Of a stretch of DNA of 64,000 bases, positions 31,880 to 62,736 are shown in pieces; position 1 is the stretch's first letter, and each line of letters begins with the position of its first letter. Source of the DNA: Patescibacteria group bacterium (GTDB lineage: Bacteria; Patescibacteriota; Minisyncoccia; Phycocordibacterales; PALSA-1337). Both the position numbers and the translations under genes were made by a program. The DNA lies in the NCBI GenBank assembly GCA_038061795.1, contig JBBTYL010000003.1:41-64040 (forward strand), given 5' to 3'. Below the pieces are notes generated by a model, which saw nothing but the letters and a program-made list of their open reading frames with translations, made no database searches and was not told the DNA's origin.

Positions 31880-32458
31880 CTAGAAAGTATTTTGTAACGC
31901 CTTAACAGTTTCAACTAATTTTTCTGGTTCTGCTACACTTACATTAAATGTAGTTAGTAGTGGGAACACATCGTTTACATTTCCTAAATGATCACGGTAC
32001 TGTAGCGGTGTATTAAATTCAAAACATACTGCTCTAGGAACGTTTACGAGGAAAAGCTCGAATGGGAAACGGCCAATTGATGTTCTCTTAGGATTTTCCG
32101 TAACATAAACATTTTTAATATTAGAAATTTGAAAATAAAACTGAAATTTCACACGACCAAAAGCCATATAAAAGTTTTCTGGAACTTCTTTGTAAAGTCC
32201 CTTATACCACAATTTATCACCGAGCGAAATTATCCTGCCATCCTTGGTTACCGTGACTTTTCTTGAAAAGCCCCTGAAATAAATTACTACGAATAATATA
32301 TAAAATAGATAGAATGCAATTGCAAGGTAGGTCATTTCACTTCCTATAAGTGTACTCATGAGCAAAAGAGCTGGCACACTCACAACAATTATCCATATTA
32401 GGATAAACTTCTGGGACTTTGAAAGCGCGTTCCTAAAGTTGATATTGTGTATGGACAT
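31880..32458 (-). CDS. Hypothetical membrane protein (2 N-terminal TM helices plus a soluble domain), AT-rich
   Basis: 192-aa ORF. No family recognised. Confidence 0.5.
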   Translation of the reverse strand: MSIHNINFRNALSKSQKFILIWIIVVSVPALLLMSTLIGSEMTYLAIAFYLFYILFVVIYFRGFSRKVTVTKDGRIISLGDKLWYKGLYKEVPENFYMAFGRVKFQFYFQISNIKNVYVTENPKRTSIGRFPFELFLVNVPRAVCFEFNTPLQYRDHLGNVNDVFPLLTTFNVSVAEPEKLVETVKALQNTF

Positions 32459-32619
32459 GTATCTTTATTTATTTTAATACTATAACACACAAACATTAAT
32501 CTGTGGACTTCAATATTCCATTATGGAACCAATTCGCTAAGGAATGCGAGAGATTGAAGCTTATATTGAAAGCAGATAAGGCCATATTGTAAATTACCCC
32601 ACAGCTACACCCACTATAA

Positions 32620-33291
32620 TTATTTCGAGAAAAGCGTCTTTTCAGGCGGCTTAATGAACTTCCTCATTTCAACATCAGAGAAAACTCTTTGAACGTCAGT
32701 CTTATTGAACATCATCATGAGTGGCTTCGTTGATTTTTCTGGGTTGCTGGCATCGGGAATAGAGAACCCTATATATTCAACCTTCTTTTTCATTCTATTT
32801 CTAACCCAATCTATCGCTGGCACGAGATCGGAGTCAGAGCTGACAACAATGGCAGTGTCATATTTATTATCAAAAGCTCCTACCAATAAATCTGTTGCGA
32901 TTTTTACATCTATACCCTTTTCTCTCATTCTTTCGGTATGTATCTTTTCTATGCCTATTTTCTTGAGCTTTTTATACTCAAGAACACGATTATCGACAAC
33001 CAGTTCCTCAATTCTCGTTCTTAACTTGCTTGTCTTTATATCCCAGCCACACTTTTTAAGAATGGTAAAAAGCTTCGTCTGTTTCGACATCAGTTCTTTG
33101 CTAAGCAGATCACCTTCTTTCTCGCGAATGGTGCCTTTATAAAACCTTTTTGAATTTTCACTGGCAGTACGACCATCAATAAGAAGACTAGCAAAAGCCT
33201 CAAAATCAAAATCATTCTCTTTGATGCCAAGCTTCTTTACCACCAAGTGATAAAAATTGCCACCATCTATGTATACAGTAATCCTTTCCAT
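32620..33291 (-). CDS. NYN-domain (LabA/DUF88-like) putative ribonuclease
   Basis: ITVYIDGGNFYH ... DTAIVVSSDSDLVPAIDWV are NYN/LabA motifs. Start set at MERITVY; the ORF track extends to 33327. Confidence 0.85.
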   Translation of the reverse strand: MERITVYIDGGNFYHLVVKKLGIKENDFDFEAFASLLIDGRTASENSKRFYKGTIREKEGDLLSKELMSKQTKLFTILKKCGWDIKTSKLRTRIEELVVDNRVLEYKKLKKIGIEKIHTERMREKGIDVKIATDLLVGAFDNKYDTAIVVSSDSDLVPAIDWVRNRMKKKVEYIGFSIPDASNPEKSTKPLMMMFNKTDVQRVFSDVEMRKFIKPPEKTLFSK

Positions 33292-33307
33292 GGTTTCCAT
33301 TATAACC

Positions 33308-33346
33308 CCAAAAAGAAACCCGCACACTCTTTGCAGAGGCGCGGGT
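33308..33346 (-). terminator. GNRA-capped hairpin plus U-tract between promoter 33360..33388 and the NYN gene (terminator or attenuator)
   Basis: Minus strand ACCCGCGCCUCU-GCAA-AGAGUGUGCGGGU (12 bp, one bulge) followed by UUCUUUUUGG. Confidence 0.55.
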
Positions 33347-44143: not shown

Positions 44144-44464
44144 TTAAGCAAGCTTATTAATTTCTTTTTGAACTCTTCTGGCATACTTGATATCCTTCAC
44201 ATCTATCTTCCAAGCTTTTTTGATAAAGCCATGAATAATGCACACTTTGCCGTTATGAAAAATATACAGTATCCTAACTTTTTTCTTTCCGAGTGTCCTT
44301 AATTCAAATAATCCTCCGCCTAGGCTTTTAGAATCAGGCATACCAATCAAATTTCCATATTCTTCAAGCAAACCTATTGTCTTTCTTGTTCGAGATGCTG
44401 AAATAGCATCAAGACTTCTTATAAATCCTTTTACTTTTTCATTATAGTAAATAACTTCCATCAC
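44144..44464 (-). CDS. Type II toxin, phage Gp49-like / HigB-RelE superfamily
   Basis: GGGLFELRTLGKKKVRILYIFHNGKVCIIHGFIKKAWKI pattern typical of Gp49/DUF891 toxins. Toxin-first order as in higBA. Confidence 0.72.
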   Translation of the reverse strand: MMEVIYYNEKVKGFIRSLDAISASRTRKTIGLLEEYGNLIGMPDSKSLGGGLFELRTLGKKKVRILYIFHNGKVCIIHGFIKKAWKIDVKDIKYARRVQKEINKLA

Positions 44465-44567
44465 CCAACTCTAGCAGAGCCAGATGAAGAAAAACCTAAG
44501 AAGTTCTAAAATCCTGATAAATTTTTGATTGAGCGATAAGAACTAGTAAGCGTCTAGATACCCTATT

Positions 44568-44870
44568 CTATAAGCTTCTATTCCTATTCTTAATTTTTCC
44601 GTAGAAATAACCTACAAGCACGCCTATACCAATGTAAACTAGTAAAATAATTACAAAGGCAATAATAAGTCCTAGAAAACCTGCTGCAGAATGGCCGAGC
44701 AAACTTAAATGAAATCCGGAGTATTTTCCAAGAAGATTAAGTGCATCAAGCGGGAAAATTGTAAGATCGTATCTTATGACGAAAGGGGGGATATACAATA
44801 CTGCAATAATTAAATATATTATTGTAAATACAATTCCTCCCTTCAACCAATATCTTTTTGTGTTTTGCAT
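44568..44870 (-). CDS. Small 3-TM membrane protein (100 aa)
   Basis: Hydrophobic ORF starting 9 nt after the stop of the tkt N-terminal subunit. Confidence 0.45.
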   Translation of the reverse strand: MQNTKRYWLKGGIVFTIIYLIIAVLYIPPFVIRYDLTIFPLDALNLLGKYSGFHLSLLGHSAAGFLGLIIAFVIILLVYIGIGVLVGYFYGKIKNRNRSL

Positions 44871-46891: not shown

Positions 46892-47203
46892 TTATGCGCT
46901 TATTGTAGCATCTTTTATTCCCAAATGTCTCTTTATGAGATCGAGGTCACTTTTTACCCCGCCAAATTCAGCATCAATCTTATCGAATCTGTCATCGATT
47001 TTATCGAATCTTTCATACACACGATCAAAATTACCCATCATAGCTTCGGTCATGTAATCAAACTTCTTATCAACTTCATTGAATCTTCGATCGATTTTTG
47101 AAAAGTTTTCATCAGTAATAATAAAACCGTTCTCTGAAGTTTTCCTCAGGGAATCAAAATCAGCTTTGGTAACAAATGGAGAATTGTAGGATTCTTGCAT
47201 CAT
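46892..47203 (-). CDS. Hypothetical coiled-coil protein with internal (R/K)FDKID-type repeats
   Basis: FSKIDRRFNEVDKKFDYM / FDRVYERFDKIDDRFDKIDAEF repeats seen in translation. Confidence 0.45.
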   Translation of the reverse strand: MMQESYNSPFVTKADFDSLRKTSENGFIITDENFSKIDRRFNEVDKKFDYMTEAMMGNFDRVYERFDKIDDRFDKIDAEFGGVKSDLDLIKRHLGIKDATISA

Positions 47204-47325: not shown

Positions 47326-47877
47326 TTATGCTTTATAAAAATCTACTTCCTCATAATAATATGACTGTTCAATACCCTTCATAAAAACATCGCGATCATC
47401 GATTTTATCAGTTAGAGCTGCATGTAAAAGCTCGCGAATTTCGAGGTCGTTCACTGGGCTTCGCTGCATAGCATTCAAATAATCCGCTTTATCAATCTTC
47501 GCCCAATCAATGCATCGCTTGAGGTTTTTTTTAAAAATCAAATCCAACCAGATTCTCATACTACGTCCATTGCCTTCCATAAACGGATGAGCTATATTCA
47601 TTTCCACATATTTCGCTATAATTTCCTCAAAAGTGCTTTCTGGCATAATGCTGATGCTTTTGAGACTTTCACTCAAATATAAACAAGAGGCGAATCTAAA
47701 TCCCCCCTTGCTCATGTCTTTCGTGCGGATCTGACCGGCAAAATCATAAAGTCCTTTGAACAGATATTCATGAACCTGTTGCAGGCCTTTGACCGTGCCC
47801 ACCTCGAAACTTTCAATTTCTTGGCTGCCAAACAGTTTTTTTGCGCGTTCCTTGCTGATTGCATCGACGTTTTGCAT
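47326..47877 (-). CDS. Fic-domain protein (putative AMPylase)
   Basis: Canonical Fic motif [12 protein letters not shown]. 183 aa. The C-terminal SYYYEE resembles, imperfectly, the class III inhibitory motif (S/T)xxxE(G/N). Confidence 0.88.
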
Positions 47878-58731: not shown

Positions 58732-59487
58732 TCACATAACGCCTCGCAGTTTGAGATCCTCTCGAACGTCATGGTCGTCAATTAATTCGTAGATAGACAC
58801 CTGGCCGGCAGCGGTAGGATTAAGCCCTGGCACGTATCCATACGTCGCCCATGACCCGTCGCGGACGCATCGAAATCGTTCCCGCGTTGCAAGTTCTCCC
58901 ATCGGGAAAGCGATGAGAGGCGTGTTGCCGCCATAGCGCCGCAAAGCGTCTCTTACAAGCTTGCAGTCCCCTTCTTTGACCGCCTTACTGACGAACTTGA
59001 AGAAAGCGCAGAGCGGAAAAGTCTCGAATTCCCTCACGGCTTCTTCTGGCTGGTCAGGCGTACCCTAGAGACGATGATCTGAAATACCGATTTTTTTCCA
59101 AGAAAACGGCGGGGTTAAATTTCGATCAATCACCCACCGCGCCAGATCGACGGCCCAATCAACAAACACATTTGAAGATGGATTTGCAATCTTCATGACA
59201 ATCGGGTCAGGAAGCGAATTCCAAAATTTCCATTGATCTTCAGGGGTAATGACGCGCATTCCTCCCTGCGATTTAGGACGCAATGCAAGAATCATGGGCT
59301 TGTCTGAAAAAAGCCCGTACAGATGTGCATAGAGAAAACTGATAAGATCAGTATTCCGCATGCCATCTAGACGAATCTCCACTGATGTGGCCACGCACGT
59401 GCGCCAGTAAACGGAGATGAGTTTTGAACTTTCGGAAGGGCACATCGAGGCGATGACCCCGAAATAAGGAGTAGTGTTAATGAGCAT
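58732..59487 (-). pseudogene. Type I 3-dehydroquinate dehydratase-like gene interrupted by one in-frame TAG (59065..59067)
   Basis: SVEIRLDG, KPMILALRPKSQGG, ISDHRL*GTP, FFKFVSKA, LIAFPMGELATRERF and AAGQVSIYEL align by eye with AroD motifs. The two track ORFs are in the same frame, separated only by TAG. Confidence 0.6.
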
Positions 59488-59526: not shown

Positions 59527-59607
59527 CTTGACTACAAAAAGCATATTAAGTAAGACACCCCGCAGCTTGCACAGCCGCGGGGTGGTGAAATCGGTTGATG
59601 TCATGGT

Positions 59608-60381
59608 TTACTTCTTGGGGCTGGCTGTCAAAACGCGAAGGCGTTCGATACCGGCCCTGATGCAGACGGCCTCGGGACTCAAAGCTGTAACGTCACGCAA
59701 CTCCAGGACAACCTTGCCGACGGTTTGCTCAACGAGTTCGACCGACAGGCCAAACGCATCGGCAACGTCTTTGACATTCAACTTGGGGTTGGTCTGCAGA
59801 TACGAGTGAATGAGCAACGCGATCATCGGGTGGACTTCGCCGTTGCTGACGAACTTCAGAAGTTTCGGCTTCGGTGAGTCTGATGGTGAAGCTGGTGCCT
59901 GCACACCGCGTTTCTTGTACGGACGACGGGTCTTTTTCCCAATCTTCTTGGCGCGGACTGTGCGAGGTTTCTTGCCTGCAGGGTTTTCATCACCTGCACC
60001 ACTAGCACCCTCTTCATCCTTGAACTTGATGTCATCAACTTCGCCGAACTTCTTCACAACGGCAGCCAAGGTGGCGTCAGCCATCGCTTTGAAGTTCTTG
60101 CCGTAGTCCGAATCAGCTTCGTAAAACTCACGAGCAGAATCCGTCAAGAGATGCACATTTGCTGGGCTGCAATTGCCGAAATGTGGACACATGACTTTCT
60201 TGTCATACTCCAATTTATCAATGACAACAAATACGGCCACGCGACGGATGAACCCAACCATTTTGTTCTTGCCTCCGGCGACAATGTCTTCCTTGGTCGT
60301 GCCTGCTTCTTTTGCTGACTCGCTCTCGAGTGAAAAAGCAAAAATAAACTCGATGAGCTCGTTTAGTGTCTTTGTCTTCAT
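59608..60381 (-). CDS. Hypothetical protein with a central Lys/Arg/Pro-rich segment and a possible C-terminal HTH (257 aa), G+C-rich
   Basis: Long ORF followed by the hairpin 59556..59584. No family recognised. Confidence 0.5.
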   Translation of the reverse strand: MKTKTLNELIEFIFAFSLESESAKEAGTTKEDIVAGGKNKMVGFIRRVAVFVVIDKLEYDKKVMCPHFGNCSPANVHLLTDSAREFYEADSDYGKNFKAMADATLAAVVKKFGEVDDIKFKDEEGASGAGDENPAGKKPRTVRAKKIGKKTRRPYKKRGVQAPASPSDSPKPKLLKFVSNGEVHPMIALLIHSYLQTNPKLNVKDVADAFGLSVELVEQTVGKVVLELRDVTALSPEAVCIRAGIERLRVLTASPKK

Positions 60382-60418
60382 GTACTATCTTTTTCTTGGT
60401 TTACTGCGATTATGTTTC

Positions 60419-61132
60419 CTACACTTTCGGTATCTTAAAAAAGAAGGGTTGTTTTACTTTTGGAATTACCTTCTTCTCGGCCTGTCCATTTTTCACTGGT
60501 TCAGACCCCACTACCTCAACAACCGGAACAGCCGGCTGTGGAACGGGTGCGACTTCGTTGGAGTTTTCCTCCTTTTGTATTCTGCTGTAATTTTTACTGA
60601 ATATGAACTTATGGCTGTTGGTCCTTTGCTTTTTGGGAGCCTTAGGAAACGCCTCCTGTCCATCCTCATCCTCAAATGAAGGCGCCATGTCCGAAGCCCA
60701 ATTCAGATTGGGCAATTCGACTTTGATGCCATCAAGCGTTTCTCCAGTCCGATACCTTTTGGGATTAAACTGGATGATCTCAACATGGTCTGAAACCGGC
60801 ACACAACGAAGTGTCCAATTTCTTGAAAAACCAAAGCATTCGGAAAAGTTCATTGGCCCTTCCCGCGCTCCAAAGATGAGAGACGGTTTCATCGAACCGT
60901 ATTCGAATTCCTCCATGGTACCGTCGGCAGTATTGAGCGCAACGAGCCTGAATTGGACCGCGCGCTTGTAACTTCCGAGATAAAATGGGACTGTCCAGTA
61001 TTCAAGGAAAATCCTCAAGCCAGACAGCGGAATGCTTCCATCAAAGTACGGACTCTCGTGGGTCGTAACAACCGAAGTAACCTCAAGAACTGTTTTGCCA
61101 GCTCTCGAAGACAACGTATTTTTTGTTTTCAT
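60419..61132 (-). CDS. Hypothetical protein (237 aa from MKTKNTL), G+C-rich
   Basis: Long ORF. The track starts it at 61189. No family recognised. Confidence 0.45.
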   Translation of the reverse strand: MKTKNTLSSRAGKTVLEVTSVVTTHESPYFDGSIPLSGLRIFLEYWTVPFYLGSYKRAVQFRLVALNTADGTMEEFEYGSMKPSLIFGAREGPMNFSECFGFSRNWTLRCVPVSDHVEIIQFNPKRYRTGETLDGIKVELPNLNWASDMAPSFEDEDGQEAFPKAPKKQRTNSHKFIFSKNYSRIQKEENSNEVAPVPQPAVPVVEVVGSEPVKNGQAEKKVIPKVKQPFFFKIPKV

Positions 61133-61240
61133 GAGCTGATCTTTCTGTCCTTGCGGACGGTAAGGGGTTTGCTGGCGTAACGCTATCACACCCAGACTAG
61201 TTAGGTCAAACCGAAGTTTTCTGCAATATGCATAAAAATA

Positions 61241-61774: not shown

Positions 61775-61843
61775 GTTTAAATTATAATTTGTTTGCTGGA
61801 CATATAGAACAAGGCTAAAACTTATTTTACGGAATGATTAATC

Positions 61844-62096
61844 TTAACTATGATGCTTTTTCAAGTCACCAATAAGTTTTTTGGTCTCTTCAATAAAATA
61901 TTCCCAATCAGTATCCAGTAATTCAATTACAAGTGAAACCGTTTCATCACTGTTCTCGGGTCTGGAACCATATGAGGTTAGACCATGTAAGGATATTGTA
62001 GCACTTTTACTTGGAGTGAATAGACCCGTCGTGGTCAGGATTAAAATGAGACAAACGAGACAGTTGCAAGCTATATGGTTGAATGGTGCCTTTCAT
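61844..62096 (-). pseudogene. Possible frameshifted gene remnant
   Basis: ATG-initiated frame (MKGTIQPYSLQLSRLSHFNPDHDGSIHSK*) stops after 29 codons. A second frame without a start codon continues to a protein-like C-terminus (...SDETVSLVIELLDTDWEYFIEETKKLIGDLKKHHS*). Confidence 0.2.
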
Positions 62097-62171
62097 GCGA
62101 TTAAGTATACAAAAAGGAATTAGGTGGACTAGATGAGTTAAAATTAAAAAAATATTATATTTTTTAAAGAA

Positions 62172-62663
62172 CTAAGGATCAGGCCAATCTAGTTTACCAA
62201 TGAAATTCGTCTGGACTCTAGAATTAGTAATGTTACCCTTTGCAAATGTAAAAAATACTCGGTGCTTAGAAATGTATTTTGAAGCAGAATTTTTGAACCA
62301 CACCTCAACACTGGCGGTATATTCGCCATCTGGGATGTTGTAAAATTCCACACTATTAGAGTAATAATGTCCAGGAATAATAACAACCGGTTCATTTAAA
62401 TAATTATTAATTATTGTGGCTTGTTCATCTAATTTAAGTTGACGCCTATAAATAAGAATGTTTTCTTTCCCTTGATTTACAATAAACATTTTACTTGTTT
62501 CAAAATAAAGAAAAATTGAGGGAGTCTGATTTAATTCAAGTAATTGTTGATTAATATTATTCTGAAACATTCCAATGTAAAATGCAGCCAATAAAGTTAA
62601 CGACAATAGTATAATTTCTAATTGATTATGATATATACCTAATTTATTCCAAAAATATTTCAT
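62172..62663 (-). CDS. Membrane-anchored hypothetical protein (163 aa), strongly AT-rich
   Basis: ORF with one TM (LEIILLSLTLLAAFYIGMF). Only 2 nt separate its ATG from the discriminator base of tRNA-Gln. Confidence 0.5.
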   Translation of the reverse strand: MKYFWNKLGIYHNQLEIILLSLTLLAAFYIGMFQNNINQQLLELNQTPSIFLYFETSKMFIVNQGKENILIYRRQLKLDEQATIINNYLNEPVVIIPGHYYSNSVEFYNIPDGEYTASVEVWFKNSASKYISKHRVFFTFAKGNITNSRVQTNFIGKLDWPDP

Positions 62664-62665
62664 TG

Positions 62666-62736
62666 CTGGGGGATAGGGACTCGAACCCCAATACTCAGGA
62701 CCAAAACCTGATGTCCTACCATTAGACGATCCCCCA
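62666..62736 (-). tRNA. tRNA-Gln (anticodon UUG), CCA not encoded
   Basis: Hand-folded 71-nt cloverleaf. U1:A72 and G73 as in bacterial tRNA-Gln. Anticodon loop UUUUGGU. GGTTCGAGTCC T-arm. Confidence 0.9.

Follow-up and report, generated by a model that had tools for sequence, protein, structure and literature searches.

Two adjacent genes on the minus strand of a 64-kb stretch of DNA from a Patescibacteria group bacterium (64,000 nucleotides of contig JBBTYL010000003.1, GenBank assembly GCA_038061795.1; hereafter the window) are best explained as a clade-specific, vertically inherited operon in which the product of the second gene, B, is a DNA-binding regulator or nucleoid-type protein and the product of the first gene, A, is its partner. 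This reading is held at about even chances, and all four rival explanations weighed below are less likely. The two proteins are entered at NCBI as hypothetical proteins (AAB610_02215 and AAB610_02210). A preliminary description of the same DNA had placed both genes correctly as a consecutive pair and had suggested that, together with a neighboring interrupted aroD-like gene, they form an imported islet of about 2.5 kb with a DNA-binding or nucleoid-associated function.

The evidence for inheritance lies in the position of the pair. A is followed directly by B in L001 (68-75% protein identity), in L002-L005 (61-67%) and in L006 and L007 (37-39%), and the flanks are syntenic in all lineages compared, namely the window and three others. 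The common order runs from tRNA-Gln through a secreted protein of 177 amino acids (aa), A-B, a 176-aa secreted protein, a peptidoglycan-binding protein, NDH-2 and MacB to an ABC component. Seven independent assemblies from Hainich H41 groundwater carry this locus with no strain polymorphism, and neither an empty site nor presence-absence variation was found in L001, L002-L005, L006/L007 or these seven assemblies of the source population. No repeats were found to bound the pair, no iterons were found in or around the operon, and no mobility genes (integrase and the like), helicase gene or loader gene are present among the neighbors. Since the position is conserved in four lineages, the G+C content is raised in all of them and bounding repeats are lacking, the pair is considered ancestral to the clade. 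On these comparisons A-B appears to be old and vertically inherited, the variable part of the region being the neighboring genes, the aroD-like gene included.

Beyond these lineages the pair is nearly alone. A word-index search of 5.8 billion proteins returned only the query and two or three relatives per gene, and an exhaustive hidden Markov model search for A among 1.84 billion cluster representatives added only P0007, of 200 aa, and P0008, of 495 aa. The 5.8 billion sequences contain just 4-5 protein clusters, every one of them from uncultured Patescibacteria. Neither A nor B was found in 185,579 GTDB species representatives, and searches of IMG/VR and of 50,697 phage records brought up no relatives. 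Searches of Pfam, PHROGs, NCBIfam and PADLOC gave no significant match for A, B or their orthologues, PDB sequence-profile searches gave nothing significant for either protein, and none of the PADLOC-DB defense models matched any of five family members at E<=1. These searches bear out the earlier impression that the proteins belong to no recognizable family; the sole family match is a sub-threshold hit to the helix-turn-helix (HTH) family HTH_24 in the C-terminus of B. A and B are thus near-ORFans of extremely narrow distribution, seen in one small clade of uncultured Patescibacteria and with no relatives elsewhere.

It is clear that A and B are real genes under purifying selection, with dN/dS values of 0.13-0.26 for the two genes and 0.17-0.26 for A alone. 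Comparison of the orthologues shows the ATG at 61132 to be the true start of A. An alternative GTG at 61189, which would lengthen A by 19 codons, was rejected because the 57-nt extension is interrupted in L001 by an in-frame TAA and shows the conservation of DNA, without codon wobble, and not that of codons. The start MKTK(N/T)L that had been noted as common to the two proteins is indeed shared in this genome, and as a meaningful feature it falls away: the B orthologues begin MNKGQL or MNTKNL, and since the shared start is not kept there and A and B have no similarity to each other, it is ascribed to chance. Paralogy of A and B was rejected on the same observations.

The argument that B binds DNA is built on its predicted architecture. 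AlphaFold2, run on a three-sequence alignment, returned for B two small helical domains only, with pLDDT (per-residue model confidence) values of a moderate 66-86 in the N-terminal domain and of ~70 in the C-terminal domain. When the model was compared with the PDB by Foldseek, the top eight structures aligning to the N-terminal domain were all of DnaA domain IV. The domain IV structures matched (1l8q, 3pvp, 2hcb, 8btg, 1j1v and 3r8f; probability 0.85-1.0) stand at ranks 1-8, 10 and 24, with unrelated low-probability matches interspersed, and the target-normalized TM-score is 0.76 for 3pvp (root-mean-square deviation, rmsd, 2.8 A) and 0.71 for 1j1v. Among the predicted viral structures of BFVD the leading matches are 'DnaA C-terminal' proteins of phages, 100-190 aa long; over the two databases the top matches reach probabilities of 0.9-1.0. 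At the sequence level, hhalign aligned the N-terminal domain collinearly over its whole length to a profile of 13 DnaA domain IV sequences (P 0.018), with a score of 17.7 against 11.0 +/- 2.1 (maximum 19.1) for 200 column-shuffled controls; the isolated domain gave no match to Bac_DnaA_C (PF08299) at E<=10. This DnaA-domain-IV-like HTH at the N-terminus of B had not been foreseen in the preliminary description.

Parallels with DnaA are instructive mainly for where they end. Residues ~8-112 of B are predicted to share the helical HTH fold of DnaA domain IV (PF08299; 1J1V, 3PVP, 1L8Q), and B keeps the FG of the signature loop as well as a basic residue at the positions of R399 and R407. Unlike DnaA, B has no AAA+ or other DnaA domain (no Bac_DnaA, AAA or other Pfam or NCBIfam match), its N-terminal domain is acidic and leads into a basic linker and then another HTH, and where DnaA has its signature RDHTTV, B has an invariant CxPxNV. 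The hhalign alignment sets RDHTTV..H against CSPANV..L, so that the DnaA-box contacts R399, D433, H434, T435 and H439 of E. coli correspond to K38, S72, P73, A74 and L78 of B, and of these contacts only the basic equivalent of R399 is kept. This CxPxNV is part of a longer invariant motif of B, YDKxxxCPxFGxCxPxNV, with two invariant cysteines. These residues, C65 and C71 (window ~60169-60189), form a CPxFGxC pair in the turn of the DnaA-IV-like HTH that is invariant in 4/4 lineages and is a possible redox or metal site. Phage 'DnaA C-terminal domain' proteins such as gp62 of Sulfitobacter phage phiGT1 and gp63 of Aurantimonas phage AmM-1 resemble B in being small, in having the same fold and in lacking an ATPase; they differ in that they retain FGGRDHTTV and are detected by tblastn with E. 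coli DnaA domain IV, which does not detect B, and in that B is encoded at a syntenic chromosomal site and carries an additional HTH. A literature search on stand-alone DnaA domain IV proteins yielded nothing usable.

The remainder of B was largely anticipated by the preliminary description, which had spoken of an acidic N-terminal domain, a histone-like K/R/P-rich linker and a helix-rich C-terminal segment that could be an HTH. The isoelectric point (pI) of the N-terminal domain is 5.0, and the linker core (aa 135-175) is K/R/P-rich, with 15 K/R in 41 residues and a pI of 11.9, a basic character that is kept in the orthologues. The C-terminal HTH gains a weak signal that stays below threshold: the isolated domain matches HTH_24 with E 0.0011 and 19 bits where the cut-off is 21.9, and B of the window and the close orthologues P0002 and P0003 consistently score 15-19 bits (E 0.0009-0.017). 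The match of these C-terminal 80 residues covers the H2-H3 region of the HTH_24 profile (PF13412), that of Lrp/AsnC- and MarR-type winged-helix regulators, and the weak Foldseek tail for the domain likewise contains Lrp/AsnC, MarR, IscR and Z-alpha structures, with LrpA, PH1519 and IscR among them. Unlike the Lrp/AsnC and MarR regulators, B has no ligand-binding domain (RAM or other), its HTH is C-terminal with a long basic linker in front of it, and the wing is absent from the model. At the level of predicted folds, B is supported as two HTH-type modules joined by a basic disordered linker, and it is best described as a two-HTH protein with a basic tether, not as a member of the DnaA family. 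The DNA-binding function that had been proposed for B is plausible from the C-terminal HTH signal, the basic linker and the N-terminal HTH fold, and the part of the proposal that fails is the importation of the DNA.

The surroundings of the two genes have the anatomy of an operon. Upstream of A lies a 24-nt element whose core, TAGCGTTACGCCAG, is identical in 4/4 lineages, including L006, where the proteins are only 37-39% identical; over the whole 24-mer L001 and L002 depart from the window by a single base each, and L006 matches it throughout. It contains the near-palindrome TAGCGT-T-ACGCCA (TAGCGTTACGCCA). The window has no second copy of the element even when 3 mismatches are allowed, and it occurs exactly once per locus that bears gene A, always ~40-55 nt upstream of the A ATG. 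It is a candidate operator. The hexamer TTGACC is found at the same distance from it in L001, L002 and L006; this is a resemblance to consensus only, and a simple promoter scan made no call owing to the poor -10. On inspection, the spacing of the element does not fit a sigma-54 or an extracytoplasmic function (ECF)-type promoter, and these readings were set aside.

Leader and codons 1-17 of A are predicted to form a hairpin with a minimum free energy of -26.4 kcal/mol. Compared with dinucleotide shuffles its z is -4.5 (0 of 200), and predictions for L001 (z -3.8), L002 (z -4.8) and L006 (z -2.9) give a hairpin of the same build. Between the window and L006 there is one compensatory change, CAGCUC/GAGCUG to CAGUUC/GAACUG (C-G to U-A). 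Same-codon conservation is high in codons 1-20 of A, and in the comparison with L001 it is equal or higher in codons 41-70. No Rfam family matches the leader. The terminator behind B is conserved in L001 and L002, and L006 has a different hairpin with a T-run at the same place. With a shared promoter region, a short spacer, a terminator at the end, and order and spacing kept in four lineages, A and B appear to be co-transcribed as one operon.

Features of the A-B operon and of its products (window coordinates; nt, nucleotides; ORF, open reading frame; SD, Shine-Dalgarno sequence)
Feature	Position	Strand	Remarks
Gene A	60419..61132	minus	237 aa from ATG; ORF call
Gene B	59608..60381	minus	257 aa; ORF call
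A globular domain, aa 1-135	60728..61132	minus	conserved, predicted beta-rich, ~130 residues
B N-terminal domain, aa 1-122	60016..60381	minus	predicted all-helical DnaA-domain-IV-like HTH fold; pI 5.0
B linker, aa 123-176	59854..60015	minus	disordered; pLDDT <50 for aa 123-175
B C-terminal domain, aa 177-257	59608..59853 (stop codon included)	minus	winged-helix-like HTH by sequence, plus terminal helix
-35-like hexamer TTGACC	61204..61209	minus	read from sequence; 16 nt upstream of TGT-GATAGC
24-nt element GTGTGATAGCGTTACGCCAGCAAA	61168..61191	minus	extended -10-like TGn+GATAGC and near-palindrome at likely transcription start
Two-tier leader/translation-initiation hairpin	61081..61156	minus	predicted; pairs SD-like AAGGA and AUG of A
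A-B spacer, 37 nt	60382..60418	minus	no terminator inside
Intrinsic terminator	59556..59584	minus	12-bp G+C-rich stem, T-containing tail

Protein A is defined by its conserved globular domain, in which the orthologue alignment gives the invariant motifs EYW, FR.V, EE.E.G, C.G..R.W and F.P.RY. The disordered tail that follows is acidic and then Pro/Val/Lys-rich, as had been described before, and ends PF(F/L)FxIPKV in the three closer lineages. The AlphaFold2 model of A, made without the distant homologues P0007 and P0008, is unusable (pLDDT 37), and its Foldseek matches to thioesterases and C2 domains, with an rmsd of 12-14 A, were discarded as meaningless. P0008 (locus L012, 6001-7488) comes from another Patescibacteria genome of the same aquifer (a Hainich H41 contig) and joins an N-terminal A-domain to a 365-aa helical C-terminal region in which Pfam and PDB searches detected no family. 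It lies beside Pol IV and a DNA methyltransferase/restriction pair, and there is no B gene near it in the L012 locus. A Rosetta-stone fusion of A and B was considered for P0008 from a likeness, seen by eye, of its C-terminus to the N-terminal domain of B (NVH.L...DSD) and from a ParB-like stretch; hhalign, Pfam and PDB searches lend it no support, and it is at most a tentative lead. The joining of the A-domain to a helical region fits with an A-domain that works alongside helical partner domains.

B would act as a sequence-specific DNA-binding regulator or nucleoid-associated protein and would target its own promoter, with the operon-specific 24-bp element and its near-palindrome as operator. 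A, with its novel beta-rich domain, disordered tail and conserved C-terminal peptide, may be a partner or modulator of B, and the leader hairpin may occlude the ribosome-binding site and the AUG, adding a translational gate on A. The operon is probably autoregulated. It resembles the general class of autoregulated HTH operons whose leader hides the ribosome-binding site in having both a conserved element of its own at the promoter and transcription start and a stable hairpin over SD and AUG, and differs in that its leader matches no known RNA family.

Several observations weigh against this account. The fold of B was called from one AlphaFold2 model built on three sequences, with pLDDT running from 64 to 45 over the five models, the Foldseek E-values are weak (0.002-0.7), and the sequence-level support for a relation to DnaA domain IV is marginal (P ~0.02). 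The N-terminal domain lacks the DnaA signature and, with a pI of 5.0, is acidic, which is unusual for a DNA-binding HTH, and the C-terminal HTH_24 score is below the Pfam cut-off. The 24-nt element could be just a promoter with its initial transcribed sequence, and the scan for further sites in this genome covered the 64-kb window only. Covariation support for the hairpin amounts to one compensatory pair, and in the P0008 fusion no domain resembling B is detected by hhalign.

Composition is one of the grounds on which an imported islet had been proposed. The interval that holds the pair has 49.1% G+C against 44.2% for the window, placing it at the 99th percentile of same-size windows, and its tetranucleotide z is ~1.9 (rank 10 of 157). 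By sliding-window G+C and tetranucleotide analysis the G+C richness that had been seen by eye in the pair thus holds for the interval and for B (51.3%, z 1.7; G+C at third codon positions, GC3, 59.7%, z 2.0) and not for A, which at 46.8% (z 0.65) is no outlier; the elevation of GC3 is mainly in B. Synonymous divergence (pS) among the window, L001, L002 and L006 is 0.44-0.65 in A and B, against 0.70-0.76 in the flanking genes, and B is a mosaic, its codons 95-247 (~59640-60100) being 88-97% nucleotide-identical to L001 and its N-terminal half 55-62%, with 93-97% in the C-terminal domain. The low pS and raised G+C suggest selection at the codon or nucleotide level, or biased gene conversion, and high expression, if it occurs, would likewise account for the low pS and the raised GC3; the low pS and the mosaic point to inter-lineage recombination, synonymous-site constraint or both, and the mosaic could alternatively come from a chimeric L001 metagenome contig. 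That the pair and the aroD-like gene are a recently imported islet with a nucleoid-associated function can draw on the anomalous composition of the interval, on tRNA-Gln at 1.5 kb (a distance now confirmed), on the variable genes around it, and on the reduced synonymous divergence and the mosaic of B as signs of some inter-lineage recombination. It is nevertheless highly improbable. The pair keeps the same site and order in four lineages whose proteins are as little as 37% identical, it lacks flanking repeats and mobility genes, the seven assemblies show no polymorphism, neither an empty site in a close relative nor a donor lineage with near-identical genes came to light, and the G+C content of A and B is raised in every lineage, at 46-51% against local backgrounds of 41-42%; raised G+C that is common to all orthologues is more likely intrinsic to the genes than a sign of recent import. 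Nor does the aroD-like gene belong to any such unit. Relatives carry MamF_MmsF downstream of B and then a rhodanese gene, which in L001 and L002 follows directly. In the window the aroD-like gene takes the place of these two, which makes it a separate replacement.

The remaining alternatives accept a chromosomal pair and differ in what it is for or where it came from. The pair might be the domesticated remnant of a replication-initiation or origin-binding module of a mobile element: phages often encode stand-alone DnaA-C-terminal proteins, which are the best structural matches of B in BFVD, and a winged-helix-like C-terminal domain recalls the winged helices of plasmid Rep and ORC proteins. 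Such an origin is unlikely, given stable chromosomal synteny, no relatives among the viral and phage records searched, no iterons or repeats, no integrase, helicase or loader gene nearby, and FGNCSPANV in B where the phage proteins keep FGGRDHTTV. An equally doubtful proposal is that B regulates replication or the nucleoid at DnaA boxes or oriC, as competitor or organizer, with A as its controller. The predicted domain IV fold, a basic linker of the kind typical of non-specific DNA binders, and the start of the 24-nt element, TGTGATA, which is loosely like the reverse complement of the DnaA box TGTGGATAA, would agree with this; against it stand the alignment of D433, H434, T435 and H439 to S, P, A and L in B, the acidic N-terminal domain, a number of DnaA boxes in the window (17 where 12.7 +/- 3.6 are expected) that shows no enrichment, with none near the operon, and the lack of a GC-skew switch in the window, which places the locus away from oriC. 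Very improbable, finally, is a toxin-antitoxin or anti-phage defense pair with B as HTH antitoxin or regulator and A as effector. The layout, two genes in one operon with an HTH protein and possible autoregulation, would agree with this, and the window holds other toxin-antitoxin-like genes (Gp49-like, 44144..44464; Fic, 47326..47877). Both proteins exceed the typical size of toxin-antitoxin components, however, A has no recognizable catalytic motif, none of the five family members has a PADLOC match, and the synteny is strictly vertical with no patchiness.

The preferred reading, a clade-specific operon of a DNA-binding protein and its partner, is of interest because of the organisms in which it occurs. 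Almost nothing is known of regulators and chromatin proteins in Patescibacteria, as these bacteria are uncultured and their genomes are rich in lineage-specific genes. The locus is a compact and well-bounded candidate, a single operon with a leader hairpin and a conserved DNA element that is unique to it; the architecture of B, in which a basic linker joins a DnaA-IV-like HTH to a winged-helix-like one, has not been described before, and the A domain has no detectable relatives. The reach is small: the family is limited to a few groundwater lineages, and there is no sign of a new mechanism. A much bolder version can be conceived, and it is a long shot: a new chromosome-associated module of the ultra-small bacteria of the candidate phyla radiation (CPR), in which a DnaA-IV-derived HTH, possibly redox-sensitive via CPxFGxC, would control replication initiation or nucleoid architecture together with a second winged helix and a histone-like basic linker, governed by a partner with a beta-fold not seen before and by a structured leader RNA.

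The wider neighborhood is ordinary chromosome, with genes for GAPDH, dihydroorotate dehydrogenase, an ECF sigma factor, a MacAB-like exporter, NDH-2, isocitrate/isopropylmalate dehydrogenase and several secreted or envelope proteins. Among the genes that differ between lineages, PAP2 lies upstream of A in L001 and L002-L004. The aroD-like gene of the window (58732-59487, minus strand, 251 codons; 140-aa ORF call) was correctly described as interrupted: it is a continuous frame broken only by one TAG at 59065-59067, in a stretch that resembles a conserved His motif of type I dehydroquinases (ISDHRL*GTP). The split is present in 7/7 independent assemblies and is therefore no sequencing error.

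The strongest compositional anomaly of the window lies elsewhere, at 61800-62664 (36% G+C, tetranucleotide z 4.0). This insert of ~865 bp sits exactly at the 3' end of tRNA-Gln (62665-62736), is bounded by a CCAGCA repeat, and holds a 163-aa ORF (62172..62663, 29% G+C) with no family match; it is absent in L006, where the tRNA abuts the homologue of the 177-aa gene. The genuine compositional islet of the region is this low-G+C insert beside tRNA-Gln. Further small genes of low G+C (32-38%) occur at 44144-44870, 46892-47203, 47326-47877 and 31880-33327, among them the Gp49-like (HigB-type) and Fic/DOC genes already mentioned, and they are likely accessory or toxin-antitoxin genes.

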